Source of the DNA: Flavobacteriales bacterium
GTDB lineage: Bacteria > Bacteroidota > Bacteroidia > JACJYZ01
Assembly: GCA_020635855.1 (NCBI GenBank)
Contig: JACJYZ010000002.1
Location: 79,937-143,936, forward strand
Length of the DNA stretch: 64,000 bases
Direction of reading: 5' to 3'
Positions 6,387 to 60,005 of this stretch are shown here, piece by piece. The notes under the pieces are model-generated. The model did no database searches and was not told the origin of the DNA. It worked only from the letters and a program-made list of their open reading frames with translations. A program made the translations under genes and the position numbers. Position 1 is the stretch's first letter. Every line of letters begins with the position of its first letter.

Positions 6387-7697
6387 TCACGTCTTCTGCT
6401 TCTTCTTCTTTGCTGCCGGAAACAAAATGTTGTTCAGGATCAGCCGGTATCCGGGTGAGTTCGGATGCAGGCTGAGGTCGGTCGGCGGGTCGCCCACCAG
6501 GTGGCGGTAGTCTTCCGGGTCGTGTCCGCCATAGAAGGTCCATGTGCCTTTGCCGTATTCCCCGTGGATGTATCTCACTTCATTGGCCGCTTTGGTTTCA
6601 CCCATCACCAGCACCGTGGGTTTTACATATTGTTTGCGGAATGCAGTGGTTTGCCCCATGAAGCCCTTGATCACCATTTCGTGGTTCTGGCACAACATGG
6701 TGGGTACAGGGTCCCACTTCGCAGAGAACTCGAACAGGGTGAAGTAGTCGAGGTTTTCGTTGATCACGCGGGGCGGGGGGTAGTTCGGACTGTTATCGAT
6801 ATTGGAGAACTCGTACTGATAAGGATCGGTGGAGAGCTGGAAATTGGTGAATGCAAAACATTTGCTGTAATCCAGTTTGCTGTTCATCTGCGGGTCGGCG
6901 GCATCTCCGTCGAACATGCTTTCGCAGATGTCAACCCCTTCCGCTGCCAGGGCGATGTCATACGAATCGGTGGCGGAGCACATGGCAAACAGGAAGCCAC
7001 CACCGGCGGTGAAGTCGCGGATGTGTTTGGCCACCGCCAGCTTCAGTTCCGACACTTTGGAGAATCCCAGCTGGTGGGCCATCGCTTCGGTTTCCCGTAC
7101 CTGTTCCTGGTACCAGGCGTATTGGGCATAGGCGCGGTAAAACCTTCCGTACTGTCCGGTGAAGTCTTCGTGGTGGAGGTGCAGCCAGTCGTACAGTGGA
7201 AGTTTTCCTTCAATGATCTCTTCATCGTACACCACATCATAGGGGATCTCGGCGTAGGTCAGCACCAGGGTCACGGCATCATCCCAAGGTTGTTTGTTCT
7301 TGGGTGAGTACACGGCGATCTTCGGGGCCTTCTCCAGCTTCATCACATCCATGTTCACTTCCGGGTCGGCGATTTCGTTGAGGATCTGGGTCACCTGTAC
7401 GTCGGCAAGGATTTCATAGGAAACACCGCGGATGACGCATTCGTTCTCGATGGCGCTGTTGCGCTCGCACAGGAAACTTCCGCCGCGGTAGTTCAGCAGC
7501 CACTTGACTTCGATGTTGTGCTGCAGTACCCAGTAAGCGATGCCGTAAGCTTTGAGGTGGTTCTTCTGGCCGTCTTTGTCCATCGGGATCAGGATGGACG
7601 CTGCCTGCAGTCCAAATGAAATGAACAGGCAGGCCGTGAGCAGGATGAATGGAAGCGAACGTTTAGAACGGCTGGTTCTCGTCGTCTTCAATGTCAT
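6387..7697 (-). CDS. conserved exported hypothetical protein (family often mis-annotated 'asparagine synthetase B-like' in Bacteroidetes)
   Basis: Likely start at 7697 (MTLKTTRTSRSKRSLPFILLTACLFISFGLQAAS signal peptide), overlapping the dnaB 3' end by about 35 nt. The ORF as listed extends to 7907 only through an in-frame read-through of the dnaB tail. About 437 aa. Confidence 0.45.
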   Translation of the reverse strand: MTLKTTRTSRSKRSLPFILLTACLFISFGLQAASILIPMDKDGQKNHLKAYGIAYWVLQHNIEVKWLLNYRGGSFLCERNSAIENECVIRGVSYEILADVQVTQILNEIADPEVNMDVMKLEKAPKIAVYSPKNKQPWDDAVTLVLTYAEIPYDVVYDEEIIEGKLPLYDWLHLHHEDFTGQYGRFYRAYAQYAWYQEQVRETEAMAHQLGFSKVSELKLAVAKHIRDFTAGGGFLFAMCSATDSYDIALAAEGVDICESMFDGDAADPQMNSKLDYSKCFAFTNFQLSTDPYQYEFSNIDNSPNYPPPRVINENLDYFTLFEFSAKWDPVPTMLCQNHEMVIKGFMGQTTAFRKQYVKPTVLVMGETKAANEVRYIHGEYGKGTWTFYGGHDPEDYRHLVGDPPTDLSLHPNSPGYRLILNNILFPAAKKKKQKT

Positions 7698-9186
7698 CCA
7701 TGCGTGATGACCGTGTGATGGTATTGGGTCCTTCCTCATGCGAATGGAAGGGAGCATCGAAATCATTCGTCTCCCAATCTTCAAATTTAGCCAACTTATC
7801 AATAAAACGCAGGGGAACGTCAACAAGTGCGCCGTTACGGTGTTTTGCGATGATGATCTCCGCCAGTCCGCGTGTGGGGTTGTTGTTTTCATCCACGTCC
7901 AGTCCATAGTACTCGGGGCGGTAGATGAACATCACCATGTCGGCGTCTTGTTCGATGGCACCCGATTCACGAAGGTCGGACAGTTGCGGACGTTTGCTAC
8001 CGCCGCGGTTTTCAACGGCGCGACTGAGCTGTGACAGTGCGATCACCGGCACATTCAGTTCCTTGGCGATGCTCTTGAGTGAGCGGGATATGGTGCTGAT
8101 CTCCTGTTCGCGGTTGCCTTTGCTGTCGCCGCCGGCGGTCATCAGCTGCAGGTAATCCACGATGATCAGTTCGATGTTGTTCTGTTGTTTCAGTCGACGT
8201 GCCTTTGCGCGCAATTCGAAAACGGAAAGAGCGGGTGTATCGTCGATGAAGAGCGGGGCTTCTGCCAGGCGGGTGATCTTGGCATTCAGCTGTTGCCACT
8301 CGTGGTCTTCCAGGTTGCCTTTCTTCAGCTTTTCAGCTGAGAGTTGGGCTTCCGCCGCGATGAGACGATTGACCAATTGAAGCGACGACATTTCCAGGGA
8401 GAAGATGGCGACAGGCTTATTGAACTGAACCGCGGCATTGCGGGCGATGGACAACACGAATGCCGTTTTACCCATACCGGGGCGGGCAGCGATGATATCG
8501 AGGTCTGAGCGTTGCCAGCCGGAAGTCACGCTGTCGAGTTTGGAGAACCCGGTGGGTACGCCCGTGAGTCCGTCGGTGTGGTTGCGTGCGGCTTCGATCT
8601 CGCGGATGGCCTGGCTCAGCAGGGTAGACATGCGGTCGTAGTTCTTGCGCACGTTTTGTTCGGTGATATTGAACAGGTTCTCGCCGGCTTTGTCGAGCAG
8701 GTCGAAGGCATCGTTGGTTTCCTCGAAACCGTCGCGGATCATTTCCGAACCCAGCGAGATTAATTGACGCTGGATGTATTTCTGCAGGATGATACGGGCG
8801 TGGAATTCCACGTTGGCTGCGGAGGCCACGCGGTTGGTCAGCTGGGAAATGTAATAAGGTCCGCCGGCCACGTCGAGGTTGCCGGATTTTTTCAGTTCGT
8901 TGGTTACCGTGAGGATGTCGATGGCTTCCGCTTTGCTGAACAGTTGCTGGATGGCTTCGAAGATCATCCTGTTCGCATCCTTGTAGAAACACTCCGGCTG
9001 CAGGATGTCGATCACCGCACTCAACGCATCCTTCTCCAGCATCAGGGCGCCCAGCAGGGCTTCCTCCAACTCAACCGCCTGCGGCGGAACCTTCCCGTGC
9101 TCCGACGCAATCGTGGAGATGGCGGCAAGTCCGTTACGCCGTTTCGCGGCTCTGTCTGTGATCTTCAAATTTTCCATGGCCCCCAA
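7663..9186 (-). CDS. dnaB: replicative DNA helicase DnaB
   Basis: Walker A (GMGKTAF). DnaB N-terminal domain and RecA-like C-terminal domain. 507 aa. No intein. Confidence 0.93.
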   Translation of the reverse strand: MGAMENLKITDRAAKRRNGLAAISTIASEHGKVPPQAVELEEALLGALMLEKDALSAVIDILQPECFYKDANRMIFEAIQQLFSKAEAIDILTVTNELKKSGNLDVAGGPYYISQLTNRVASAANVEFHARIILQKYIQRQLISLGSEMIRDGFEETNDAFDLLDKAGENLFNITEQNVRKNYDRMSTLLSQAIREIEAARNHTDGLTGVPTGFSKLDSVTSGWQRSDLDIIAARPGMGKTAFVLSIARNAAVQFNKPVAIFSLEMSSLQLVNRLIAAEAQLSAEKLKKGNLEDHEWQQLNAKITRLAEAPLFIDDTPALSVFELRAKARRLKQQNNIELIIVDYLQLMTAGGDSKGNREQEISTISRSLKSIAKELNVPVIALSQLSRAVENRGGSKRPQLSDLRESGAIEQDADMVMFIYRPEYYGLDVDENNNPTRGLAEIIIAKHRNGALVDVPLRFIDKLAKFEDWETNDFDAPFHSHEEGPNTITRSSRMDDIEDDENQPF

Positions 9187-10821: not shown

Positions 10822-10836
10822 CGATCAGGAAGTTTT

Positions 10837-10911
10837 TTGAACCACATAGGCACATAACACACATAGGCTATGTGTTTTTTCTATTGTGACCTATGTGTCT
10901 ATGTGGTTCAA
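10837..10911. repeat. palindromic intergenic element (TGAACCACATAGGCACA family), copy 1
   Basis: Arms tgaaccacatag (10838-10849) and ctatgtggttca (10899-10910). Internal CACATAG/CTATGTG units. Contains ctattgtgac, which is the reverse complement of the loop in copy 2. Confidence 0.65.
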
Positions 10912-10912
10912 A

Positions 10913-11917
10913 TCAGGAAGCCTTGTCCTTTGCTTTCTGCTCTTTTTCCAGGTCTTCCTCGCCTTCGATCACGGGGCCCATCGCAGAGAACTTCATGATG
11001 CGGTCGTGAATGCGGTCTTCCGGTGCCATGGCATCCAATACGGCCAGGTGTTTCATGATTTCCTTTTTCACGATGGCGATGGCTTCGTCGGGGTGGGTGT
11101 GTGCACCGCCCAGGGGTTCTTTGATGATGCCGTCGATGAGTTTGTTGGACAGCATGTCTTCGGCGGTGAGCTTGAGGGCTTCGGCGGCTTTTTCCTTGAA
11201 GTCCCAGCTGCGCCACAGGATGCTGGAGCATGACTCCGGGGAGATCACGCTGTACCAGGTGTTTTCCATCATCAGCACCTTGTCGCCGATGCCGATGCCG
11301 AGTGCACCTCCGGAGGCGCCTTCACCGATCACGATGCAGATCACGGGCACGCGCAGCTGCGTCATCTCAAGCAGGTTGCGTGCGATGGCTTCGCCTTGTC
11401 CGCGTTCCTCGGCTTCCAGTCCGGGATAGGCGCCCGGGGTATCTATTAAGGTCACGATGGGTTTGTTGAACTTCTCCGCCATTTTCATCAGGCGGAGGGC
11501 CTTGCGGTACCCTTCGGGGTTGGCCATACCAAAGTTACGGTACTGGCGCATCTTGGTGTTGATCCCTTTCTGGTGACCGATGAACATGATGGAGCGCCCT
11601 TCAATGGAAGCGAACCCGCCCACGATGGCTTTGTCGTCTTTCACGGTGCGGTCGCCGTGCAGCTCCAGGAAGCTGCCTTCGTCGGTCATGCCCTGAATAT
11701 ACTTGAGGGTGTAGGGGCGTTCGGGGTGTCTGGACAGCTGCACGCGCTGCCAGGCGGTGAGGTTGCCGTATACCTTCTTGCGTGTCTCGTCGATCTTCTT
11801 GAGCAGCTGATTCTCCGTTTCGGAGGTATCCACGCTTCCTTCGGACTTGACCTCCCGGATCTTGTCCAGTTGGGTCATCAGTTCTTCAATCGGCTTTTCG
11901 AATTCCAGGTATATCAT
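10913..11917 (-). CDS. accA: acetyl-CoA carboxylase carboxyltransferase subunit alpha
   Basis: Full-length collinear match to AccA ([18 protein letters not shown]...[25 protein letters not shown]...). 334 aa. Confidence 0.93.
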
Positions 11918-11992
11918 GATGATGGATGATGGCTAAAGCCCCGCAAGGTACAAAATCCGGTGGGGAAGTGCCAGAGGGGTGAGGGATAGGGG

Positions 11993-12048
11993 GTAAGGGG
12001 GTAAGGAGGTAATGAAGTAAGGAAGTAAGGAAGTAAGGAAGTAAAGGG
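11993..12048. repeat. 8-bp tandem repeat (GTAAGGAA)x~7, partly degenerate
   Basis: gtaagggg gtaaggag gtaatgaa gtaaggaa gtaaggaa gtaaggaa gtaaaggg. Lies in the divergent intergenic region between accA (-) and the first island gene (+). Confidence 0.7.
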
Positions 12049-12118
12049 TGTATGATGGGGGAGTGAAGGAATTGTTGTAGATTTTGAGACGGGATAACCG
12101 ATTGGCAAGTACTTTCAA

Positions 12119-12685
12119 ATGATGCGACCATTCATCTTTTCACTGACAATTTTACTATTGAACGGTTGTGGGCCTTCTGCCGTTCAGACCAATAACCCAC
12201 GGGATGACACTTTGGCCAATGACAACATACCTGAATCAACCAATAGACGGTATTTGCAGCCTGACAGTCTAATCTCGACTGCTGGTGACTTTAATGGGGA
12301 CAGTCATCAGGATTTGGCAACCGTTGTTCCTCCATCGATGGATAATTTGGGTCACTGCGAAAAATGCATCACTAAAATCGCCTTCTCCGACAGCATAGAC
12401 ACCTTGACAATTCCTTATGAAGCAAATGGTGCAATCATTTTTAATGCGGGTGACTTAGACGGTAACAAGACGGATGAGTTACTTGTAATTCCAGGCTGGT
12501 TTAACAGCTGTCTCGGAACGCAATGGGTCTATACTTACAGGATCAACAAATGGGATACGGTAGCAAGCGGGCAAATCAATCGCTGTATTCCGCAAAACAC
12601 AATCAAAAAAATAAAGAACGGACTGTTTCAAATGACTCAGTATATGGATGGGCAAGACAGCATAACAACAATGAAAATTAAATAG
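12119..12685 (+). CDS. hypothetical lipoprotein with FG-GAP/VCBS-like Gly-Asp motifs
   Basis: Signal plus lipobox (LLLNGCG). GDFNGDSHQDLATV and GDLDGNKTDELLVI motifs. AT-rich coding. Confidence 0.5.
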   Translation: MMRPFIFSLTILLLNGCGPSAVQTNNPRDDTLANDNIPESTNRRYLQPDSLISTAGDFNGDSHQDLATVVPPSMDNLGHCEKCITKIAFSDSIDTLTIPYEANGAIIFNAGDLDGNKTDELLVIPGWFNSCLGTQWVYTYRINKWDTVASGQINRCIPQNTIKKIKNGLFQMTQYMDGQDSITTMKIK

Positions 12686-12739
12686 TAAGATAAACACATT
12701 ACACTTTGAGTCACCATAGATTTGCAACTATTAGTTAGG

Positions 12740-12789
12740 CGTTAGGCGAAGGTTGTACCTTCGTCTTTTTATCCTGTAGCATTCGCTAC
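12740..12789. repeat. about 50-bp post-stop intergenic repeat (family A), copy 1
   Basis: gttaggcgaaggttgtaccttcgtctttttatcctgtagcattcgctac. About 90% identical to 18365-18412. Confidence 0.6.
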
Positions 12790-12860
12790 ATAAGCTGCCC
12801 GTGTAAGAGAACAATTCATACATTACACTCGACTGTATGGCTGACACCCGCTAAACCACC

Positions 12861-13604
12861 ATGACGAAGTTCTTCACATATTGCTTCGACAAATGGTGGA
12901 AACCCATTCTGTTTTCTGGTTTCACCCTCGGGCTTGTTGTAGCAAGTGAATTCATCCAGAACAACATTTTCGGGTGGTTTAGCTTCATGCTTTTCGGGTC
13001 GGGTATGCTCGGACTTGTTATCTCCATCGTATATCAATTGATAAAAAAGCGATGGTTAAAAGCGATCCTGACCGGACTGTTCTTTGGTGGAACCATTGCT
13101 GCATTTGTGGTATACGTCTTATTCTCGTTTTTCTTGGAAACAGTGGACGGTGACAAATGGGCTGACAATTTGAAGATTCCAACGGACATACAACTTGACA
13201 TACCAGTTGACCTGGCGTTAAGAAATCAAAGGCAGGATAGTGTTCCGGCATGGACCAAGTACACAGGAGATTTTCAGCTTTACAATTCGTTTCAGCCAGG
13301 ATTATATGAGTACGACTTCTGGACAGGCAAAATTGAAGCCGGGACAATTTATCTTAAAGCCTTTGAGATTACCCAGGAGTATGCTCTTTCCACAGATTGG
13401 CTCCCTGAACGAAGTGCAGTCAAAATTTACAATCCAACGGACAGTATACTTAAATTTGGTACGACAACACATTTCACCATTTACGAGGGCGATTGGGGTA
13501 AACCGTATGCCGCAAGATTTGAGGTTTGGTTTAAGCCCGATAAAGGTGGACAGGAGCGAAAACTATTCATGGAAAATTATAAGATTGAAGGATGGCAGCG
13601 GTAA
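12861..13604 (+). CDS. hypothetical membrane protein (three predicted N-terminal TM helices plus soluble C-terminal domain)
   Basis: Hydrophobic segments FSGFTLGLVVA, FGWFSFMLFGSGMLGLVISIV and AILTGLFFGGTIAAFVVYVLF. No recognisable motif. Confidence 0.5.
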   Translation: MTKFFTYCFDKWWKPILFSGFTLGLVVASEFIQNNIFGWFSFMLFGSGMLGLVISIVYQLIKKRWLKAILTGLFFGGTIAAFVVYVLFSFFLETVDGDKWADNLKIPTDIQLDIPVDLALRNQRQDSVPAWTKYTGDFQLYNSFQPGLYEYDFWTGKIEAGTIYLKAFEITQEYALSTDWLPERSAVKIYNPTDSILKFGTTTHFTIYEGDWGKPYAARFEVWFKPDKGGQERKLFMENYKIEGWQR

Positions 13605-13658
13605 CGGGTAAGGTTCGCATATTAGGAGCAGGTTGCACATCTGTTTTATCTTTAAATT

Positions 13659-13775
13659 ATGACTGATATAACCCCCAAATGCTGCGACACAATGGCGTAC
13701 CACTCCACCCACCACTGCACGCAGCATACAAGCAAATATGATTGTCCGGATGCTTTAGTTGACAGCAAGAGATGA
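13659..13775 (+). CDS. truncated copy (38 aa) of small Cys/His-rich protein (paralog of 15940-16149)
   Basis: MTDITPKCCDTMAYHSTHHCTQHTSKYDCPDALVDSKR*. About 85% nt identity to the first 100 nt of 15940-16149. Its TGA stop overlaps the ATG of the next gene (ATGA). Confidence 0.5.
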   Translation: MTDITPKCCDTMAYHSTHHCTQHTSKYDCPDALVDSKR

Positions 13776-14593
13776 CAGGAAATTTGGCACAACTTATTGC
13801 ATTGGCAACATACGGCAATGCTTATTTGACGACAGGAAGTTTACCTGACGACTTTTACCCGGCAAACACGACTTTTCAGTTTTGCAGATCAGTGGATTTT
13901 TTGGCGCTCAGGAAAACTTTCTTCTTTTCTAAACCGAAGGAAACCATTGTTGCAGTCACGCCAATAGATTGGTTTAAGATGCTGAAAAAAGACAGCTGCA
14001 AAAAAATTAGACTTTACTTTCAATATTCCAAGGATCAAAGTTTTGCTAAAGACCACAAATTGGCTGGCTTGGTTGGTGGTGGTGGGACGTGGTTAATTGA
14101 GACAATTTTTGACAGCTATTCTGATTATTGGGTCGGGAGATGGGAGGTGAAGGATCCAAATGCACCTGACCATAACATTTGGAAAGTAAGTTATGATTTG
14201 ATAGCACCACACAACAGGACGACTGATATAAAAGTGAATCTGGATGGTGTCAAGAAAAAAATTAGCCAAACATTGACGGAGATTGCTTCCTTCGCTTCTC
14301 AATTAGAAAATCAGTATTGGATGGAGCAGTTTAATAAAGCTAAGGAAGTGCTGTCAAGTGCTAGCCCCAAAGAAAATTATTATCACAAGGATTTAATTGT
14401 TGTCGGCAATTACTCATTGAAGGCACAACAAGTTTTATTTGCCGCGGGCTGTGCTTGGGTTTTTGGTGGTATGGGTTCTTGGAACGACATCGGCTTTGAC
14501 AACAAAGAGGATGAGAATAGATATGATGAACTTTCAGCACAACTTTATGACGACATTAATCAATCAATATTGGCAGTGGTTAACTCATATTGA
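13772..14593 (+). CDS. hypothetical cytosolic protein (no recognisable domain)
   Basis: 273-aa ORF with no signal peptide. Start is coupled by an ATGA overlap to the upstream truncated small ORF. AT-rich. Confidence 0.45.
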   Translation: MTGNLAQLIALATYGNAYLTTGSLPDDFYPANTTFQFCRSVDFLALRKTFFFSKPKETIVAVTPIDWFKMLKKDSCKKIRLYFQYSKDQSFAKDHKLAGLVGGGGTWLIETIFDSYSDYWVGRWEVKDPNAPDHNIWKVSYDLIAPHNRTTDIKVNLDGVKKKISQTLTEIASFASQLENQYWMEQFNKAKEVLSSASPKENYYHKDLIVVGNYSLKAQQVLFAAGCAWVFGGMGSWNDIGFDNKEDENRYDELSAQLYDDINQSILAVVNSY

Positions 14594-14731
14594 CCAAGAC
14601 AGACGTAAGCCAAAGCCCGCACGTTTGTCTCCTTATTTTTTGGAATTTGCCATCCTGCTCCATCCCAACACCCCCCTTTCTTATGCGGTAAAAAGTCCAA
14701 TTAATCACCGCAAATATGCGGTAAAAAAATG

Positions 14732-14739
14732 TATATTTG
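14732..14739 (+). promoter_or_regulatory. Bacteroidetes sigma-A -7 box TATATTTG upstream of the Fic gene
   Basis: Exact TAnnTTTG match 19 nt upstream of the Fic ATG. Two direct repeats TATGCGGTAAAAA (14682-14694, 14715-14727) lie just upstream and may be operator sites. Confidence 0.4.
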
Positions 14740-14757
14740 TCGCATAGCGTTTGAGCA

Positions 14758-15864
14758 ATGGCGAAATATATCTATGAACAAAAGAACTGGACGGCCTTTA
14801 CCTGGCAAGACAAAGCCATCAATGCCGTGTTCGGAGAGGTTCGCCTGATGCAAGGCAAAATCATCGGGCAGATGAACGCCCTCGGTTTTTCTGCCAAGGA
14901 AGAAGCCACGCTGACCGCATTGACATTGGACGTGGTTAAATCATCGGAAATAGAAGGTGAAATGCTCAACTATGACCAGGTGCGTTCGTCCATTGCCAGA
15001 CGCTTGGGCATCAACACCGCCGGACTTGTACCAAGCAGTCGCCACGTAGAAGGCACCGTGGAAATGATGTTGGATGCCACCCAGCGTTTCAACCAGCCTT
15101 TGACCCAGAAACGTTTGTTTGGCTGGCACGCAGCACTCTTCCCCACGGGATACAGCGGTCCGTACAAAATAGAAGTGGGAAAATACCGCACCGGAGAAAT
15201 GCAGGTGGTGTCGGGGGCAATGGGAAAAGAGAAAGTGCATTACCAGGCAGTAAAGCCGGAGCGCGTAAAAACGGAAATGAAAACGTTTCTGGACTGGTTC
15301 AACAAAGACAACAGTTTGGACCCTGTGCTGAAAGCAGCCATCGCTCACTTTTGGTTCATCATCATTCATCCCTTTGATGACGGAAACGGAAGAATCGGAA
15401 GGGCCATCACCGATATGTTGCTGGCCCGGGCAGAAGGCAGCGGAGAACGCTTTTACAGCATGTCAAGTCAGATATTGACCGAGCGAAAACAGTATTACAA
15501 AGTATTGCAGGATGTGCAACACAGCACGGGCGACATTACCGAATGGCTCGATTGGTTTTTGCATTGCCTCAAAAAGGCGATGCTCGCTACCGAAAACACC
15601 ACCCGGAAAGTAATCCGTAAAGCGGAGTTCTGGAAACTGCACGAACACACGCCCATCAATGAACGTCAACGACGAATGCTCAACAAACTGTTTGACGGAT
15701 TCGATGGAAAATTGCAAACATCCAAGTGGGCAAAAATCACCAAAACATCAACAGATACCGCTTTGCGTGACATAAAAGACCTGGTGGCAAAAGGTATCCT
15801 TCAGCCGACAAAAGAAGGTGGGCGAAATGCGAATTATGAACTGGCAGACTTCGAATGGGAATAG
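14758..15864 (+). CDS. Fic/DOC family protein with N-terminal DUF4172 (Fic_N) domain; class II Fic with inhibitory motif
   Basis: Fic active-site motif HPFDDGNGRIGRAI (HxFx[DE]GNGRxxR). N-terminal inhibitory helix motif SSEIEG ([ST]xxxE[GN]). N-terminus MAKYIYEQKNWTAFTW is typical of DUF4172. Confidence 0.85.
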   Translation: MAKYIYEQKNWTAFTWQDKAINAVFGEVRLMQGKIIGQMNALGFSAKEEATLTALTLDVVKSSEIEGEMLNYDQVRSSIARRLGINTAGLVPSSRHVEGTVEMMLDATQRFNQPLTQKRLFGWHAALFPTGYSGPYKIEVGKYRTGEMQVVSGAMGKEKVHYQAVKPERVKTEMKTFLDWFNKDNSLDPVLKAAIAHFWFIIIHPFDDGNGRIGRAITDMLLARAEGSGERFYSMSSQILTERKQYYKVLQDVQHSTGDITEWLDWFLHCLKKAMLATENTTRKVIRKAEFWKLHEHTPINERQRRMLNKLFDGFDGKLQTSKWAKITKTSTDTALRDIKDLVAKGILQPTKEGGRNANYELADFEWE

Positions 15865-15939
15865 TCATGTGACGCAGCAACGAATGATGCGGGGGGGTAT
15901 CTTCGACGAAGATTGCACTCCATACTTATTATATAAATC

Positions 15940-16149
15940 ATGACCGATGCCAACACCAAATGCTGTGACATGATGGCGTACCACTCCACTCACCACTGCA
16001 CGCAGCATGCAAGGAAATATGATTGTCCGGATACCCTGATTGACTATAGCGATAAAACCGGCGATTACAGACTCATCATTCATGACGGAGGCACATCCGG
16101 CATTCGAAATGAATATTGTCCCTGGTGCGGAAGCAGGTTAAAAAAATAA
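15940..16149 (+). CDS. small Cys/His-rich zinc-ribbon-like protein (69 aa), uncharacterised
   Basis: MTDANTKCCDMMAYHSTHHCTQH...CPWCGSRLKK. CC...HHC and CPWC pairs suggest metal binding. Paralogous truncated copy at 13659. Confidence 0.5.
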   Translation: MTDANTKCCDMMAYHSTHHCTQHARKYDCPDTLIDYSDKTGDYRLIIHDGGTSGIRNEYCPWCGSRLKK

Positions 16150-16155
16150 TGGTAA

Positions 16156-16551
16156 GTGGAAATCAACGACCGCGTTATATTGAACACATTTTCCGGTACC
16201 GGTTCACCCGTTCGTAAGGTTGACCCGAAAGAAAATTACCGGAAATTAATCGGTCAGGCCGGCACCATCATAGATAAAAGAGACGATCGTGTTTTGGTTT
16301 TATTCGACTGCGAGGTGGACCTATTCGGACTGGAGAATCATAACCCCGTTAAGAACATCTTGTGGATTTTACGGATTGACCTAAGAAGGATTGGTTCCGA
16401 TATGATGACGCTAACCGACACAGACCTGCTCGCCAGATACAACGGTGGACAAAGGCAGTTCAGGGATATTGAAGTTGAGGATGGCGACTTGCAAAGGACA
16501 GACCTGAAAAATATATCGTTTGATGGTTGTTTCCTGTTTTGTTGGGCGTAG
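16156..16551 (+). CDS. hypothetical protein, C-terminus weakly pentapeptide-repeat-like
   Basis: 131 aa, starting 6 nt after the small ORF stop. C-terminus LLARYNGGQRQFRDIEVEDGDLQRTDLKNISFDGCFL has A(D/N)Lxx-like periodicity and ends abruptly. Confidence 0.4.
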   Translation: MEINDRVILNTFSGTGSPVRKVDPKENYRKLIGQAGTIIDKRDDRVLVLFDCEVDLFGLENHNPVKNILWILRIDLRRIGSDMMTLTDTDLLARYNGGQRQFRDIEVEDGDLQRTDLKNISFDGCFLFCWA

Positions 16552-16621
16552 GTTGTGGTTCGTTTCTTTATCTTGCAGTATGCGATATACGCTTCCTGTT
16601 GTTACATATCAATAAACCCAA

Positions 16622-17371
16622 ATGAAATCAAAATCAATCATTCTTCTATTTGGACTAACGGCATTCTTCTTCGGTTGCGCGGAGAAAAAAGAAGGTGAAC
16701 AGAAGACTACTATGCTTTCAAATTTTGTGAGCATTACGGATAACGAAGACAAAGGAATTAAGGAGATTCTTGCATTCTATGGTGGGCAATGCAAATATGC
16801 CGTTGGTGTTTCAGCTTCAACCGACCAGGGAAAGGAAAAGTATTTTGAGCTTGAAATGAGCCAAAGCGAGATAGTCGAAAAATATGCAAACATGGCTCAA
16901 TTGCCGGCTTCCAATGTGGCATATATATTTTATAAAAACCTGAAGGAAGAAAAGGATCATTATCATGAGATACATACCGTCCTCACATTCAAAGACGGTG
17001 GAGAAATGACGTATACGTATCCCATGGAACAACTCGATCTGGTCGCAGGCAGAATGTCAACGGTGAACAAAATCGTGGAACTGATAAAAACAAATCAGTT
17101 TCAGGAAATCAAACCATTCCTGAACGATACCTCGGCAGCCAAATATGACAAGAACGAACTCGTTGCAAATATGGAAAAGTTGAACCCCCAACTTGGGGAG
17201 GTGAAGGAGTTCTTGCCTTACGGATTCAGGATAACGGAAAAGGAAAATGGCAAAAGGTATTTGCACATTTCAGGTGGGATACTCAGAGAAGTGCAAAACC
17301 ATGAATTCAGTGCTGATTTCGATTTGGACAGACCCAAGGATGAATTGCTCATGATCAGATATTCATTATAA
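16622..17371 (+). CDS. hypothetical lipoprotein
   Basis: MKSKSIILLFGLTAFFFGC lipobox signal. 249 aa. AT-rich. Confidence 0.5.
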   Translation: MKSKSIILLFGLTAFFFGCAEKKEGEQKTTMLSNFVSITDNEDKGIKEILAFYGGQCKYAVGVSASTDQGKEKYFELEMSQSEIVEKYANMAQLPASNVAYIFYKNLKEEKDHYHEIHTVLTFKDGGEMTYTYPMEQLDLVAGRMSTVNKIVELIKTNQFQEIKPFLNDTSAAKYDKNELVANMEKLNPQLGEVKEFLPYGFRITEKENGKRYLHISGGILREVQNHEFSADFDLDRPKDELLMIRYSL

Positions 17372-17407
17372 AAATGTGAGCAAGGAGCGTCGCATCACTT
17401 TTGCAAA

Positions 17408-17917
17408 ATGACCTTCAAACAAAAACTGGCAGCCTACGTCATCGGGTATTTGACCGATAAAGACATTCCTGACATCGGTATAAGTGCACTCTCGGAGGGA
17501 TTGGAAAGTGAAAACCTGACCATCATGGCCGGGCTTAGTGAAAACGAAAACCGCTTTGTGCTTCGCGGCTATTTTACAAAAGCCCTTGAGGATATGCAAT
17601 TGCAGTTACCTGATACCTCCGAGGCGAAGATGACCATCGTTGACTACTATGCAGATGAAATCATCGCCGGAAGATTGGACCCTTATGATGGATATGAGAC
17701 GCTGCAAAGGGCCATTGGATTTGATGATGATAAGGACAGGTACGATTTAGGGGAAGCTTACCGTGACTACATCGTCCTTTGGGAAACGCATACAAACGGA
17801 CTTTGCTTTTATGATAAGTCCAAAACAACAAAAGAGCAATTCATCGTCGATACGAATGAGGCATTGGTGAACGCATTGAAAAGGAGAAAAGCCCGTGTTT
17901 CTGGATTGAAACGTTAA
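17408..17917 (+). CDS. hypothetical acidic cytosolic protein (immunity-protein-like architecture)
   Basis: 169 aa, no signal peptide, acidic and helical. No recognisable motif. Confidence 0.4.
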   Translation: MTFKQKLAAYVIGYLTDKDIPDIGISALSEGLESENLTIMAGLSENENRFVLRGYFTKALEDMQLQLPDTSEAKMTIVDYYADEIIAGRLDPYDGYETLQRAIGFDDDKDRYDLGEAYRDYIVLWETHTNGLCFYDKSKTTKEQFIVDTNEALVNALKRRKARVSGLKR

Positions 17918-17921
17918 AAAA

Positions 17922-18326
17922 ATGAAAGCAAATGGTGTGCTTCTGTTCATGGTTTTCGCATGTGCGCTCATGGCCTGCTGCATAAGTGCGAAAGAAGATT
18001 TCCTGGGCAACAACATGTATCTGTCCGAGTATAACAACGTGGACAGAAGAATACTTTACCAAAAAGAAAGTTGTGCAACAACGGGTACACAAATTGTTCC
18101 AATGACGGTGCTGGAAATTGCCCATGACGCCCACTGGATCATAGCTAAATCCGGAAACAAACGACAACAGAATGATTACAAATATTGGGTGATAAAAAAC
18201 AACTACGATTCAATACCGGATGCAAAAACCGTCGAAGAAAATACAATTGAATTCGACAGTTATGATTTGTTTATAGCCTACTTAAAAGACAACCGGATTC
18301 ATCTGGAGTTGGAAAGATTGGAATGA
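17922..18326 (+). CDS. hypothetical lipoprotein
   Basis: Signal peptide with Cys (MKANGVLLFMVFACALMACC). 134 aa. Confidence 0.45.
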   Translation: MKANGVLLFMVFACALMACCISAKEDFLGNNMYLSEYNNVDRRILYQKESCATTGTQIVPMTVLEIAHDAHWIIAKSGNKRQQNDYKYWVIKNNYDSIPDAKTVEENTIEFDSYDLFIAYLKDNRIHLELERLE

Positions 18327-18364
18327 AATCCAGTTCTCCCTGGTATGCCAAATGGTAAGGCACG

Positions 18365-18412
18365 TTAGGCGTAGGTTGCATCTTCGTCTTTCTATCCTGT
18401 AGCATCCGCTAC
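18365..18412. repeat. about 50-bp post-stop intergenic repeat (family A), copy 2
   Basis: gttaggcgtaggttgcatcttcgtctttctatcctgtagcatccgctac, 38 nt after the 17922-18326 stop codon. Confidence 0.6.
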
Positions 18413-18870
18413 CCATCCTGCTCCATCACACCACACAATACTTCCGGTGTCCGAATTACTTTTCCAAACCACCACCCCACGCGACAAAGCCCAAGCCTGA
18501 CGATGGCGTGCGGATGGGAACGATAGGGTGCGCAGCATAGCGCGATGGTGCTGTGCCGGATGGGACTGTGCAGGGTAAGCCCCGCGTGCCAACATCCGGC
18601 GAAGGGCATCTATCGTTCTTGATTCCTTGCCTGCCGACACGAAGGCCTGTGCAACGGCAGGCAGGGCACCCTTTGAAGAAGTTTGCTTGCCCGTCCGCAG
18701 CGCAGCGTAGGCGGGTTGTTTCTGGTTTGTTGTTTGTAGTTGGGTCAGCATTCAACTGACCGAAACCGAAAAGGGTACAGCGGATAGCGGGACGGCAGTC
18801 CGGTAGAACGATCAGCCATCCGCTACCTATCCTGCTCCATCCATGTCCTAAGGCTACCGCAATGATGTTT

Positions 18871-18929
18871 TGAACCACATAGGCACAGAGGTCACAATAG
18901 AAAATGTACTCTGTGCCTATGTGGTTCAA
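18871..18929. repeat. palindromic intergenic element (TGAACCACATAGGCACA family), copy 2
   Basis: Perfect 20-bp inverted repeat tgaaccacataggcacagag / ctctgtgcctatgtggttca around a 19-nt loop gtcacaatagaaaatgtact. Confidence 0.75.
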
Positions 18930-18998
18930 ACATGGCAAAGCCATTGGTTGCTCCCATCCGCTTCAACAAACACCCATAACCCTTACCTTTACCCACCT

Positions 18999-19814
18999 AT
19001 GCTCGTTTTCCCAAACGCCAAGATCAACATCGGCCTGCGCATTATCCGGCGCCGGCCCGACGGCTACCACGACCTGGAAAGCCTGTTCTGCCCCGTGCCC
19101 TGGGAAGATGCACTGGAAGTGCTTCCCGCCGGACACGCGGTACAGCAGGGCTTCGTGCAAACCGGTCTGCCGCTGCAACCGGGCACCAACCTGGTGGAAA
19201 AAGCCAGGGACCTGCTGGCGAAGGATTTTGACATCCCACCGCTGGGCATTCACCTTCACAAGTGCATTCCATCAGGCGCCGGACTCGGAGGCGGATCCGC
19301 CGATGCGGCCTTCGCCCTGCGCACGATCAATGAGGTGTGCAAGCTCGGACTGGACCGCCGGCAACTGGAGGCTTACGCGGAAAAGCTGGGATCGGATTGT
19401 CCGTTTTTCATCCGCAACCAACCGTGCCGGGTAACCGGCCGGGGTGAGTTCCTGGAAGAGGCGGAGGTGAACCTGGGCGGATGGCATGTGTGCATCGTGT
19501 ACCCGGATGTGCATATCTCCACGGCGGAGGCTTTCGCCGGGGTGAAGCCGCGGGAACATACGGATGGACAGGACCTCATGTCGTGCCTGAAACAACCCGT
19601 GGACACCTGGAAGGATACGGTGGTGAATGATTTCGAGGCATCGGTGTTTCCGGCGCATCCGGTATTGGCGGAGATCAAACGCGGATTGTATGATGCCGGC
19701 GCGGTGTACGCATCCATGAGCGGAAGCGGTTCTGCGGTGTACGGACTGTTCCGGGAAATGCCTGCGGACCGGGAAACGGAATTCCCCGGCATATCCAAAC
19801 GGATGGTGTTGTAA
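18999..19814 (+). CDS. ispE: 4-diphosphocytidyl-2-C-methyl-D-erythritol kinase
   Basis: GHMP-kinase motifs (PNAKINIGLRI...IPSGAGLGGGSADAAFAL). Start chosen at MLVFPNAK (18999). The longer ORF from 18870 runs through the palindromic repeat. Confidence 0.85.
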   Translation: MLVFPNAKINIGLRIIRRRPDGYHDLESLFCPVPWEDALEVLPAGHAVQQGFVQTGLPLQPGTNLVEKARDLLAKDFDIPPLGIHLHKCIPSGAGLGGGSADAAFALRTINEVCKLGLDRRQLEAYAEKLGSDCPFFIRNQPCRVTGRGEFLEEAEVNLGGWHVCIVYPDVHISTAEAFAGVKPREHTDGQDLMSCLKQPVDTWKDTVVNDFEASVFPAHPVLAEIKRGLYDAGAVYASMSGSGSAVYGLFREMPADRETEFPGISKRMVL

Positions 19815-57854: not shown

Positions 57855-59048
57855 ATGTACGGTAAGTTTCAGCAGTTTCTGAAAGATGAACTGGCTTCCA
57901 TTGAAAAGGCAGGCCTGTATAAAAAGGAAAGAATCATCGCCACACCCCAGGGGGCGGAAATCAAAACCTCCGACGGACGCTCGGTGATCAACTTCTGTGC
58001 AAACAACTACCTGGGCCTCTCGTCACACCCGGATGTGATTCAGGCGTCGCATCATACACTGGATAAACGCGGATATGGTATGTCTTCGGTTCGGTTCATA
58101 TGCGGTACACAAGACGTACATAAGGAACTGGAAGAAAAGGTATCCAAATTCCTGGGTACCGAGGATACCATTCTGTATGCTGCGTGTTTCGATGCCAACG
58201 GCGGTGTGTTCGAACCCTTGCTGGGGCCTGAGGACGCACTGATTTCAGATGAACTCAACCACGCATCCATCATTGATGGCGTAAGACTGTGCAAAGCACA
58301 ACGGTACCGGTACAAGAACAATGACATGGCCGATCTGGAGGAGAAACTGAAAGCAGCCCAGGAACAGCGCTTCCGGATGATCGTGACCGACGGGGTGTTC
58401 TCGATGGATGGGTACATTGCCAAACTGGATCAGGTTTGCGATCTGGCAGAAAAGTATGATGCGTTGGTGATGGTGGATGACAGCCATGCCACCGGATTTG
58501 TGGGAAAAACCGGACGGGGAACCCATGAACATTGCGGTGTGATGGGGCGGGTAGATATCATCACAAGCACTTTGGGTAAAGCCCTCGGCGGTGCGATGGG
58601 CGGATTCACGTCCGGCCGGAAGGAAATTGTGGAACTGCTGCGTCAACGTTCCCGCCCTTACCTTTTCTCAAACTCCCTGGCCCCTTCCATTGCGGGTGCC
58701 GCGTCCAGGGTGATGGACCTGCTCAGCGAAACCACGGCATTAAGAGACAAACTGATGGATAATACCGCTTATTTCCGCGCAGGAATGAAAGACGCCGGTT
58801 TTGATATCAAGGAAGGCATTCATCCCATCGTTCCCATTATGCTGTATGACGCCAAGGTGGCCCAGCTGTTTGCAGAAAGGCTGCTGGCCGAAGGAATCTA
58901 TGTGATCGGTTTCTTTTACCCGGTGGTACCCAAAGAACAGGCCCGCATCCGGGTGCAGATATCGGCGGCACACGAAACGCATCATCTGGATCAGGCGATT
59001 CAGGCCTTTAGGAAGGTGGGAGAGGAAATCGGGGTTCTCGCAAGGTGA
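57855..59048 (+). CDS. kbl: glycine C-acetyltransferase (2-amino-3-ketobutyrate CoA ligase)
   Basis: Near-collinear match to E. coli Kbl ([17 protein letters not shown]...[10 protein letters not shown]...DGVFSMDG...GTLGKALGG...RPYLFSN...GFFYPVVPK). Confidence 0.9.
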
Positions 59049-59160
59049 AATCTAAAGGATTTTGTTGCGCGTTCTCTTGTAGCATTAAAAAAAAGGAATT
59101 ATCTTCGCAGCCCATTTTGTGGACATAGTACAGACAAAGAGTACCTGAAACCTAGCAATA

Positions 59161-59616
59161 GTGAATACTATAAGCAACAAAACCGTTTCGCTGAACAAAG
59201 CAACGGTCAAGAAAGAGTGGTTTGTGATTGATGCCGAAAACGAGGTGCTGGGAAGACTTTCTTCCAAAGTAGCTTTCGTTTTGCGCGGGAAACACAAAAC
59301 CGGATTCACCCCTCACGTGGACTGCGGTGATCATGTGATTGTGATCAATGCAGAAAAAGTAAAACTGACCGGTAAGAAAATGGAGGACAAGGAGTACATC
59401 CGTCACTCCGGCTATCCCGGCGGTCAGAAAATCACCAAGGTGGCAGACATGCTGGATCATAAACCTACCATGGTCATTGAAAAAGCCGTAAGGGGAATGC
59501 TTCCTAAGAACAAACTGGGTAACCACATCATCGGCAACCTGCACGTATATGCCGGTTCCGAACATCAGCATGCTGGACAAAACCCACAACCACTGGCCCT
59601 GAGCTCAATCAAATAA
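59161..59616 (+). CDS. rplM: 50S ribosomal protein L13
   Basis: WFVIDAENEVLGRLSSKVAFVLRGKHK signature. Located upstream of rpsI. Confidence 0.93.
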   Translation: MNTISNKTVSLNKATVKKEWFVIDAENEVLGRLSSKVAFVLRGKHKTGFTPHVDCGDHVIVINAEKVKLTGKKMEDKEYIRHSGYPGGQKITKVADMLDHKPTMVIEKAVRGMLPKNKLGNHIIGNLHVYAGSEHQHAGQNPQPLALSSIK

Positions 59617-59618
59617 AT

Positions 59619-60005
59619 ATGGATACCATCAACACCATTGGAAGAAGAAAAACCTCCGTCGCCAGGCTCTATCTGAGCGAAGGCGAAGGCGTGTTTTACA
59701 TCAATAAAAGGGACGGAAACGAATACTTCACCGTTCCCGAGCTTGTGCAAAAAATCAATCAACCCTTCGAACTGACCGAAAGCAAAGGAAAGTACGATGT
59801 GGTTGTGAATGTAAAGGGCGGTGGTATCAAAGGACAGGCGGAAGCGATCCGTCTGGCCATCAGCAAGGCCCTTTGTGAAGTGAATCCCGAATTCAGAGCC
59901 AAATTGAAGCCCGAGGGTTTGTTGACCCGCGATTCTCGCATGGTTGAGAGAAAGAAATTCGGAAGAAGGAAGGCAAGAAAGAGATTCCAGTTCAGCAAAC
60001 GTTAA
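59619..60005 (+). CDS. rpsI: 30S ribosomal protein S9
   Basis: C-terminal [17 protein letters not shown]. 128 aa. Confidence 0.93.

Follow-up and report, generated by a model that had tools for sequence, protein, structure and literature searches.

Gene content of the accA-ispE locus

We analyzed a 64,000-nucleotide stretch of DNA from a Flavobacteriales bacterium (GenBank assembly GCA_020635855.1, contig JACJYZ010000002.1, positions 79,937 to 143,936 of the forward strand; hereafter the window), in which an AT-rich island separates accA from ispE. An initial annotation, made from the sequence alone, had placed the island at 11930-18430 and likened it to an orphan immunity/effector gene array. 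The island carries nine plus-strand open reading frames (ORFs; g1 to g9) between 12119 and 18326, arranged in five same-strand modules: g1 alone; g2 alone; a truncated DUF6980 gene with g3; a Fic gene (g4) with a DUF6980 gene (g5) and g6; and g7-g8-g9. A 60-70-nt element, which we call D2, ends every module; three of its copies are well preserved and two are degenerate. The features of the locus are as follows.

10836-10912, no strand: palindromic hairpin element with arms TTTGAACCACATAGGCACA, separating accA from the convergent lipoprotein gene; fold -36.8 kcal/mol, z = -7.4
10913-11917, minus: accA, acetyl-CoA carboxylase carboxyltransferase alpha, left border; NCBIfam PRK05724 2.7e-144 and TIGR00513 1.1e-130; GC content at third codon positions (GC3) 0.77
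11918-12118, no strand: left intergenic region with a purine-rich tandem repeat (GTAAGGAA) of 6.5 units at 11993-12044
12119-12685, plus: g1 (module 1), lipoprotein of 188 amino acids (aa), lipobox LLNGC; Pfam FG-GAP repeat 1.2e-5; GC3 0.46
12735-12805, plus: D2 copy 1, beginning with tandem GTTAGGC GTTAGGC, then a 10-bp terminator hairpin, a T-run and a second small hairpin; nhmmer 1.7e-16; fold z = -4.2
12861-13604, plus: g2 (module 2), 247-aa membrane protein with three long predicted N-terminal helices and a C-terminal Ig-like beta-sandwich; AlphaFold2 (AF2) mean confidence (pLDDT) 84
13615-13668, plus: very degenerate, weak D2-like copy after g2; nhmmer E = 5.6 only, similarity GCAGGTTGCACATCTGTTTTATC by eye
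13659-13775, plus: truncated 38-aa N-terminal DUF6980 copy; Pfam DUF6980 2.4e-6, 28.1 bits
13772-14593, plus: g3 (module 3), 273-aa cytosolic protein with a predicted N-terminal alpha+beta domain, possibly NTF2-like, and a C-terminal helical bundle; AF2 pLDDT 91; GC3 0.40
14597-14670, plus: degenerate D2-like element after g3, with terminator hairpin, T-run and then CCATCCTGCTCCATC; fold z = -3.1
14758-15864, plus: g4 (module 4), predicted class II Fic AMPylase with C-terminal winged-helix region; Pfam DUF4172 2.3e-31, Fic 3.1e-19
15940-16149, plus: g5, 69-aa Cys/His-rich DUF6980 protein, initially described as a zinc ribbon; Pfam DUF6980 9.9e-23
16156-16551, plus: g6, 131-aa cytosolic protein; N-terminal ~85 aa without known family, C-terminus the start of a pentapeptide-repeat protein
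16535-16604, plus: D2 copy 3, starting GTTGGGCG, hairpin decayed; nhmmer 8.9e-12; fold z = 0.08
16622-17371, plus: g7 (module 5), 249-aa lipoprotein; weak Pfam DUF3887 (NTF2-like) match of 2.9e-4, below the family cut-off
17408-17917, plus: g8, 169-aa cytosolic protein of a family not in Pfam
17922-18326, plus: g9, 134-aa lipoprotein, DUF3997; Pfam 1.1e-6, 29.3 bits against a cut-off of 25
18358-18428, plus: D2 copy 4, ending CATCCGCTACCCATCCTGCTCCATC; nhmmer 1.2e-16
18428-18868, no strand: GC-rich (~0.55-0.60) non-coding stretch of ~440 bp, bounded by a 25-nt direct repeat at 18403-18427 and 18817-18841
18869-18930, no strand: second palindromic hairpin, perfectly paired over a 22-bp stem and placed 69 nt ahead of ispE; fold -42.9 kcal/mol, z = -9.3
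18999-19814, plus: ispE, GHMP kinase, right border; Pfam GHMP_kinases_N 8.9e-14, GHMP_kinases_C 6.4e-8; GC3 0.72

The inventory read initially from the letters (three lipoproteins, a three-helix membrane protein, three cytosolic proteins, a Fic protein and a duplicated small Cys/His-rich ORF, on the plus strand) was borne out, as were the names of the flanking genes; the ispE product is an exact 271-aa sequence on public record.

Atypical composition and insertion between accA and ispE

GC content was 0.436 across 11930-18430 compared to 0.528 in the remainder of the window. In sliding windows, the flanks stood at 0.53-0.60 and the region from ~11750 to 18500 at 0.38-0.47, with a local rise to 0.49-0.51 over the Fic gene. 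The lowest-GC 6.5-kb window of all 64 kb begins at 12001, and all 1-kb windows with a GC content below 0.47 except one (59001-60000, 0.466) fall inside the island. Single island genes ranged from 39.4% to 49.1% GC, against a host value of ~53%, with 41% or lower in g3, g7 and g9 only. GC3 was 0.40-0.58 in the nine island genes and 0.64-0.77 in 16 core genes, so that the island lies 0.1-0.3 under every core gene examined. GC3 also differed by module, at 0.54-0.58 for Fic-g5-g6 and 0.40-0.50 for the other modules.

We compared the accA-ispE junction across relatives by scanning one genome per species, which gave 80 related Bacteroidota accA loci with 67-75% identity. In 28 of the 80, ispE is the direct divergent neighbor of accA with 66-569 bp between the tblastn matches, compared to a spacer of 7,081 bp in the window; seven further loci have ispE after accA on the same strand, and five also retain the dnaB-lipoprotein-accA(-ispE) order of the window's left side. 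None of g1-g9 was present in any of the 80 loci, and no orthologous genome with the same genes in the same order was found, nor did the island proteins belong to housekeeping families. Because the genes are absent from the syntenic site in relatives and atypical in composition, the block is an insertion of foreign origin, in agreement with the initial proposal of horizontal acquisition. It is accessory DNA of ~6.9 kb in a normally short divergent spacer, and it reaches to ~18868, beyond the end first noted, since the last gene is separated from ispE by the GC-rich non-coding stretch. Every retrievable assembly of the source Flavobacteriales metagenome-assembled genome (MAG) carries the island. 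The g2 product is up to 81% identical to proteins of other taxa, while accA reaches at most 75%. No tRNA gene, and hence no tRNA target, was found at the locus.

Defense or accessory hotspots bounded by core genes are a general concept. The island resembles them in that two syntenic core genes enclose variable accessory DNA in which no mobility genes are apparent, but differs in that we saw one occupied state only, with no alternative cargo at accA-ispE among the 80 related genomes.

The D2 repeats and the module boundaries

Similarity among the D2 copies begins exactly at CGTT(A/G)GGCG, which is followed by a terminator hairpin and then by a small GTAGC-N4-GCTAC hairpin. Hairpin folding is kept in copy 1 and in the terminator-like element after g3, and has decayed in the other copies. 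We built a D2 profile from the copies after g1 and g9 and a third copy spotted by eye after g6; nhmmer searches with this profile found no copy in the rest of the 64 kb or in ~180 loci of other genomes. The repeat families said at the outset to border and punctuate the island are therefore real and specific to this neighborhood. The copies after g1 and g9 form a pair of 59-nt direct repeats at 12740 and 18363, 85% identical, which flanks g2-g9.

Two of the module boundaries carry gene debris. The truncated DUF6980 copy ahead of g3 lies within a 111-nt direct repeat that is 84% identical to 15934-16044, and its stop codon overlaps the g3 start codon in an ATGA at 13772-13775. Overlaps of this kind usually indicate translational coupling. 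In other g3 homologues, the N-terminal extensions do not resemble DUF6980. At the end of the fourth module, g6 residues 90-123 match NCBIfam pentapeptide models at positions 3-36, and this pentapeptide part (the first ~35 residues of such a protein) is cut off at the D2 boundary, with the g6 stop codon inside D2 copy 3. Scans for sigma-70 promoters and terminators stayed at chance level overall.

Predicted properties of the cargo

The translated Fic protein retains both the active site (HPFDDGNGRIGR) and the inhibitory helix (SSEIEG), corresponding to the HxFx(D/E)GNGRxxR catalytic motif and the N-terminal (S/T)xxxE(G/N) inhibitory motif of class II Fic proteins; a TATATTTG -7 box lies ahead of the gene at 14732. 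Its best solved relative was Coxiella CbFic2 (PDB 8CIL, 2e-103, full length). It matched the PADLOC SoFic model at 4.2e-49 over positions 36-360 of 361 and phrog_5978 of PHROGs at 5e-75, and scored 71.5 bits against the NCBIfam SoFic equivalog, for which the cut-off is 550. On these matches it is predicted to be a CbFic2/SoFic-type AMPylase of class II. Its probable role is that of a toxin held in check by auto-inhibition or of a defense enzyme working through abortive infection; among the cargo, a defense role is plausible for this protein alone. CbFic2 is a DNA-regulated AMPylase/deAMPylase that has been studied as a host-targeting effector (PMC10628234), and E. coli SoFic is toxic and is neutralized by AS1, a 47-aa protein encoded just downstream (PMC12249575). 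The island protein shares with SoFic and CbFic2 the class II Fic fold, an N-terminal inhibitory helix (SxxxEG), the HPFxDGNGRxxR motif and a C-terminal winged helix, and, like SoFic, has a small ORF immediately downstream in the place of AS1. It differs in that it is not an equivalog of the Shewanella SoFic and in being known from sequence alone; moreover, the downstream ORF is a DUF6980 gene that is not linked to Fic elsewhere.

This downstream gene, g5, begins 75 bp after the Fic gene and scored 80.7 bits against DUF6980 (PF22400; cut-off 27). Its homologues are ~50% identical and solitary, and were found on plasmids of Firmicutes, Actinobacteria and Proteobacteria and in two phages; none of them was linked to a Fic gene.

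Three of the remaining proteins belong to sizeable families. The g2 family comprises at least 799 homologues in Bacteroidota, 55-81% identical and uniform in length, and the g3 family at least 453, 47-73% identical and likewise uniform in length; neither has a Pfam model. In the g3 helical bundle there is an invariant WVFGGMGSWND motif, and the one domain hint is a weak DUF6966-like C-terminus in 31 of 36 family members (best 2.6e-5). Homologues of g3 are often lower in GC than their hosts. For g8, a word-index search returned the protein itself only, and exhaustive phmmer gave 307 diverged representatives, 49 of them below 1e-10. The g8 family is small (~170 aa) and fast-evolving, and conserves the N-terminal ~100 aa with EGxDSESLxILAGL...ELxIxLP. 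Sporadic fusions of g8 homologues (P0242-P0390) to Cys_rich_CPCC, to TonB_C, to a winged-helix-like N-terminus and to C-terminal zinc ribbons were also seen.

We scanned the nine proteins against Pfam, NCBIfam, PADLOC and PHROGs and recovered matches only to Fic, DUF6980, DUF3997, FG-GAP and pentapeptide models, with weak ones to DUF3887 and DUF6966; no island protein other than Fic matched PADLOC, and in PHROGs the matches were limited to Fic and a weak DUF6980. The initial statement on the lack of recognizable domains has to be amended for g9 (DUF3997), g1 (FG-GAP), g6 (the pentapeptide start) and, weakly, g3 (DUF6966-like). Sequence searches of the PDB with g1, g2, g3, g7, g8 and g9 gave nothing below E = 0.04. 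In Foldseek searches, as suggested at the outset, the g3 model gave only weak NTF2/SnoaL-like matches, none significant, against the PDB and viral structures, and the C-terminal domain of g2 was generically Ig-like, with RhoGDI/NPC2/TRAP-like matches at ~1e-3. Signal peptides and lipobox cysteines were read directly from the sequence in g1, g7 and g9, and the cargo apart from Fic is predicted to be partly destined for the envelope, with these lipoproteins and the g2 membrane protein, and otherwise made up of small proteins of the cytosol.

Relatives of g2 and g3 in cassette arrays

Homologues of g2, g3 and g8 occur in variable contexts without a conserved partner or an adjacent toxin gene. A set of 2.9 million viral contigs contained hardly any homologues of g2 or g3, and g2, g3 and Fic had no plasmid or phage matches in annotated collections. 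Families of the island did not co-occur elsewhere in more than 170 loci (numbered with the prefix L), with the exception of a Fic-like/g3 pair in L128. There, at 6723-8485, the g3 homologue is followed directly by a gene distantly related to Fic (31% identity over 140 aa), an arrangement found in one of 84 g3 loci that echoes the g3-Fic adjacency of the window.

Several of the closest relatives lie in arrays. The 79% identical g2 homologue in L181 is one of at least 12 genes that share a strand in a low-GC array, whose spacers contain a repeated attC-like imperfect palindrome of ~90-180 nt (sites of ~125 nt) with a TAAC-containing 5' end, paired inner boxes and a 3' end containing AAAACGTTA. 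Using a profile hidden Markov model (HMM) of the attC 3' half, we found such sites flanking g3 homologues in L099, L100, L101, L105, L111 and L136, a set that includes all three of the 72-73% relatives. In L099, cmk is followed by a tyrosine recombinase, a REC-TIR gene, two unknown genes, the g3 homologue and a NucS-like gene; the recombinase has 379 aa, matches Phage_integrase at 9e-37, and has as its best NCBIfam model a tyrosine recombinase/integron integrase (XerA/integron-integrase; 197 bits). In L103, a related recombinase is followed directly by the g3 homologue and then by a TonB_C protein and an N6 methylase. Both recombinases are co-directional with the genes and stand at the 5' end of the array. 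The cargo of the related arrays is defense-like, with a REC-TIR (CAP12/Pycsar-type TIR), a NucS-like protein and an N6 DNA methylase, and no recognizable immunity gene. L099 and L103 show the architecture of the rAID-1 clusters in environmental Bacteroidota, with defense-like cargo.

The arrays are on L099 1-7778, L100, L103 6369-11645 and L181 1-12386 (Ga0182038_10004096, Ga0310914_10006320, Ga0208242_100289 and ERZ27271728 k141_5703), which are low-GC environmental Bacteroidota metagenome contigs with an attC-like palindrome in every spacer. A putative replacement of the cassette upstream of the g2 homologue in L181-L185 was rejected; the contigs are 100% identical and differ in gene calling alone. 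A further g3 homologue, in L087 (6204-11102; Ferruginibacter), lies in a same-strand run of small genes (DUF4262, two unknown, a PD40 beta-propeller and one unknown); it has 34% GC compared to 49% in the far flanks, and no spacer repeats were detectable in that run.

Origin of the island

Because the nearest g2 and g3 relatives lie in attC-like arrays, two of which start with a XerD/integron-integrase-like recombinase, our interpretation is that the island descends from a cassette array, as a relic or an offshoot, and would now lack its recombinase. The differing composition of the modules, the truncated gene duplicate and the gene cut at a repeat boundary suggest that it was assembled stepwise and has partly decayed. 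The cargo would have been drawn from solitary accessory genes that circulate in Bacteroidota as cassettes, and the D2 repeats would mark the recombination junctions. A recombinase acting in trans, or since lost, may have built the array, which would serve to stockpile accessory genes. We put the probability that the island is such a stepwise-built, partly decayed, recombinase-less cassette-type array, drawing on the Bacteroidota cassette pool, at about 0.5.

A number of results weigh against this interpretation. No recombinase was found in the window: tblastn across the 64 kb with the L099 array recombinase gave a best E of 1.9 over 17 aa. The Pfam-annotated genes of the matching MAG contig likewise included no integrase, as expected from the initial remark that none was in view, and g1 is preceded by accA, which runs on the opposite strand, and not by a XerD-family recombinase. 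On its left side, GTTRGGC is nowhere accompanied by an intact attC palindrome, and duplex energies there were no better than those of random island segments; D2 is conserved on the right-hand side of GTT, unlike integron attC geometry. The HMM of the attC 3' half, built from L181 and L099 sites, had no match in the window at E<=1, and DNA similarity to the related cassettes ends within 10 nt of the coding regions, with no shared site remnants. Among the relatives, attC-like sites were present at only ~7 of 84 g3 loci and one of five distinct g2 contexts, most g2 and g3 homologues being solitary among housekeeping genes. The retrievable assemblies of the species included none with an empty site. 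D2 may simply be a terminator-bearing 3' untranslated region spread by segmental duplication. We also considered canonical attC sites in the window and rejected them, as the GTT(A/G)GGC at the left edge of D2 has no complementary upstream partner. Given that there is no recombinase, palindrome, HMM match or shared remnant, D2 is not a canonical attC, and its role as a junction marker is one that we infer.

Two known systems bear on the cassette-array interpretation. The rAID-1 clusters of gut Bacteroidales consist of a 5' XerD-like recombinase followed by co-directional low-GC genes with integron-like repeats, and are defined with a GC content of 41% or lower (bioRxiv 10.1101/471110). The island is similarly a same-strand array of small genes with host-relative low GC, repetitive spacers and a mosaic content suggesting stepwise acquisition; at least two co-directional genes are required of a rAID-1 cluster and the island has nine plus-strand ORFs, and the repetitive spacers have their counterpart in the D2 family, with three strong and two degenerate copies. 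In L099 and L103, relatives of two cargo genes follow a co-directional 5' XerD-like recombinase. The window differs in having no recombinase and no gene in a known immunity family, its host is an environmental Flavobacteriales MAG, and the mean GC of the island is 43.6% compared to the 41% or lower of rAID-1.

The second system is the CALIN, a cluster of attC sites without an integrase that is regarded as a degraded integron (IntegronFinder 2.0, PMC9024848). The island resembles integrons and CALINs in its same-strand, mostly uncharacterized and often solitary genes, each with a repeat after it, and in the absence of an integrase; the conserved edge of D2 fits the GTTRRRY core, and L181, L099 and L100 have attC-like R''/L''/L'/R' imperfect palindromes. 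The repeats of the window, however, do not fold as attC and have their conserved part on the wrong side of GTT. The related arrays also depart from integrons, since their recombinase points the same way as the cassettes and an integron integrase diverges from them, and the sites of these arrays are long (~90-200 nt).

We also considered a stronger form of the cassette-array interpretation, in which D2 would be a new kind of cassette-associated recombination site for a XerD/IntI-like recombinase encoded elsewhere in the genome, a split integron-like system of Bacteroidota, non-canonical in kind, would actively capture cassettes at the accA-ispE spacer, and g2 and g3 would be widespread cassette genes; we regard this extension as a long shot. 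Complete integrons have been reported as very rare in Bacteroidetes (PMC9024848). If the more general interpretation is true, environmental Flavobacteriales keep recombinase-less arrays that draw on the same pool that feeds the XerD/integron-integrase-associated arrays of other Bacteroidota. The analysis flags three sizeable families without a Pfam model (g2, g3 and g8) as targets for the discovery of defense, envelope or competition functions, with high-confidence predicted structures and cassette-borne relatives available for g2 and g3, and the Fic gene as a candidate SoFic-like defense enzyme from a new lineage. For annotation, the block is better labeled an acquired accessory array than an immunity island.

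Alternative explanations

The alternative that survives best holds that the block is a small anti-phage defense island, in which the SoFic-type Fic would be an abortive-infection toxin, DUF6980 would modulate it as AS1 does SoFic, and the neighbors would be defense or counter-defense genes. The PADLOC SoFic match, the intact HPFxDGNGR motif and inhibitory helix, and the 69-aa gene 75 bp downstream, comparable to the 47-aa E. coli antitoxin (PMC12249575), are consistent with it, as are the TIR, nuclease and methylase genes of the related cassette arrays and a report that chromosomal integron cassettes are reservoirs of defense systems (bioRxiv 10.1101/2024.07.02.601686). PADLOC nevertheless recognized no second island protein, the Fic protein falls far below the SoFic equivalog cut-off, and its best structural relative, CbFic2, is the subject of work on host-targeting effectors. 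DUF6980 homologues elsewhere are solitary rather than beside Fic, and g2 and g3 are nearly absent from viral contigs, with neighbors that are not clearly enriched in defense genes. We therefore consider a defense island unlikely, although it is compatible with a cassette-array origin, as the one concerns the function of the cargo and the other its origin.

We evaluated the possibility that the block arrived in one event as a single mobile element (an integrative and conjugative element, prophage or transposon) whose integrase and transfer genes were deleted, the D2 pair at 12740 and 18363 being the former attL and attR. The 59-nt direct repeats around g2-g9 and the 25-nt direct repeats around the GC-rich stretch could be explained in this way, and the truncated DUF6980 and pentapeptide genes would be debris. 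D2, however, is present in at least three good and two degenerate copies within the block and is not confined to its ends, and the composition differs between modules. There are no phage, conjugation or transposase genes, PHROGs matches being limited to Fic and the weak DUF6980, and neither plasmid or phage relatives of g2, g3 and Fic nor a tRNA target were found. A one-event origin is accordingly quite improbable.

Slightly less probable still is the explanation favored initially, an orphan (poly-immunity) island resembling AID/rAID-1, in which the small proteins and lipoproteins would neutralize competitor toxins delivered by type VI secretion (T6SS), type IX secretion (T9SS) or contact-dependent systems. 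The array-like layout, described as typical of immunity/toxin islands in Bacteroidetes, stands: the same-strand, low-GC genes with repeated spacers agree with published rAID-1 clusters, and g2 and g3 have relatives in recombinase-associated arrays. Three periplasm-facing lipoproteins with small cytosolic proteins are typical of immunity sets, the g8 family is small, fast-evolving and promiscuous in its fusions, and NTF2-like matches, a fold used by some immunity proteins, were seen in g3 (weak, E>0.05) and g7 (DUF3887, below cut-off). The content, however, does not support immunity. None of the nine proteins matched an Imm, SUKH, SMI1 or polymorphic-toxin family (Pfam, E<=0.1). At 42 g3-homologue loci, a Pfam scan of 133 neighbors from crude ORF calls gave no Rhs, PAAR, Ntox or Imm among the 25 most recurrent families listed, none of which occurred in more than five proteins; adjacent toxin genes were absent from the contexts of g2, g3 and g8 homologues. 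Both g2 and g3 are uniform in length, mostly solitary and, with 50-81% identity between families of Bacteroidota, far more conserved than usual immunity genes, without the rapid diversification of the latter. The 5' XerD-like recombinase is missing, and the related recombinase arrays carry defense-like genes in place of recognizable immunity genes. The orphan immunity/effector label was consequently dropped.

Native, vertically inherited genes of unusual composition (such as highly expressed or envelope genes) would account for the presence of the island in all retrievable assemblies of the organism, but this is effectively refuted by synteny and composition, as the genes are missing from all 80 related accA loci (28 with ispE adjacent and divergent), have GC3 values 0.1-0.3 below every core gene examined, and have g2 and g3 homologues scattered over unrelated contexts and taxa.

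Elements at the island borders

In the accA upstream region, AGGGGTA-like units precede the tandem repeat at 11993-12044, and two short public contigs start, and one was seen to end, inside it. At the other border, the 25-nt direct repeat that bounds the GC-rich stretch reads CATCCGCTACC(C/T)ATCCTGCTCCATC, and a third copy of its core, CCATCCTGCTCCATC, lies at 14650. The ORFs of the GC-rich stretch (18428-18868) had no Pfam match, and the stretch showed no Rfam match and no similarity to other loci. Its fold z values were -1.9 and -2.0. We considered that it might be a non-coding RNA or a pseudogene and rejected both, given the lack of Pfam and Rfam matches and the fold z of about -2. No Rfam family reached the gathering score anywhere in the window, and none was found for the island or the related arrays; the microRNA matches reflect the long hairpin only.

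The long palindromic hairpin has only two copies in the window, which bracket accA and the island. The long perfect hairpins share the motif AACCACATAGGCACA(T/G)AG and were also listed at L065 9725-9885 and L006 17806-17830. The right-hand hairpin is probably native intergenic spacer, because in L065, a different genome, a related inverted repeat sits inside the accA-ispE spacer. Two public MAG contigs end or start around the right-hand hairpin, and these breaks suggest a repeat or an assembly-breaking palindrome.

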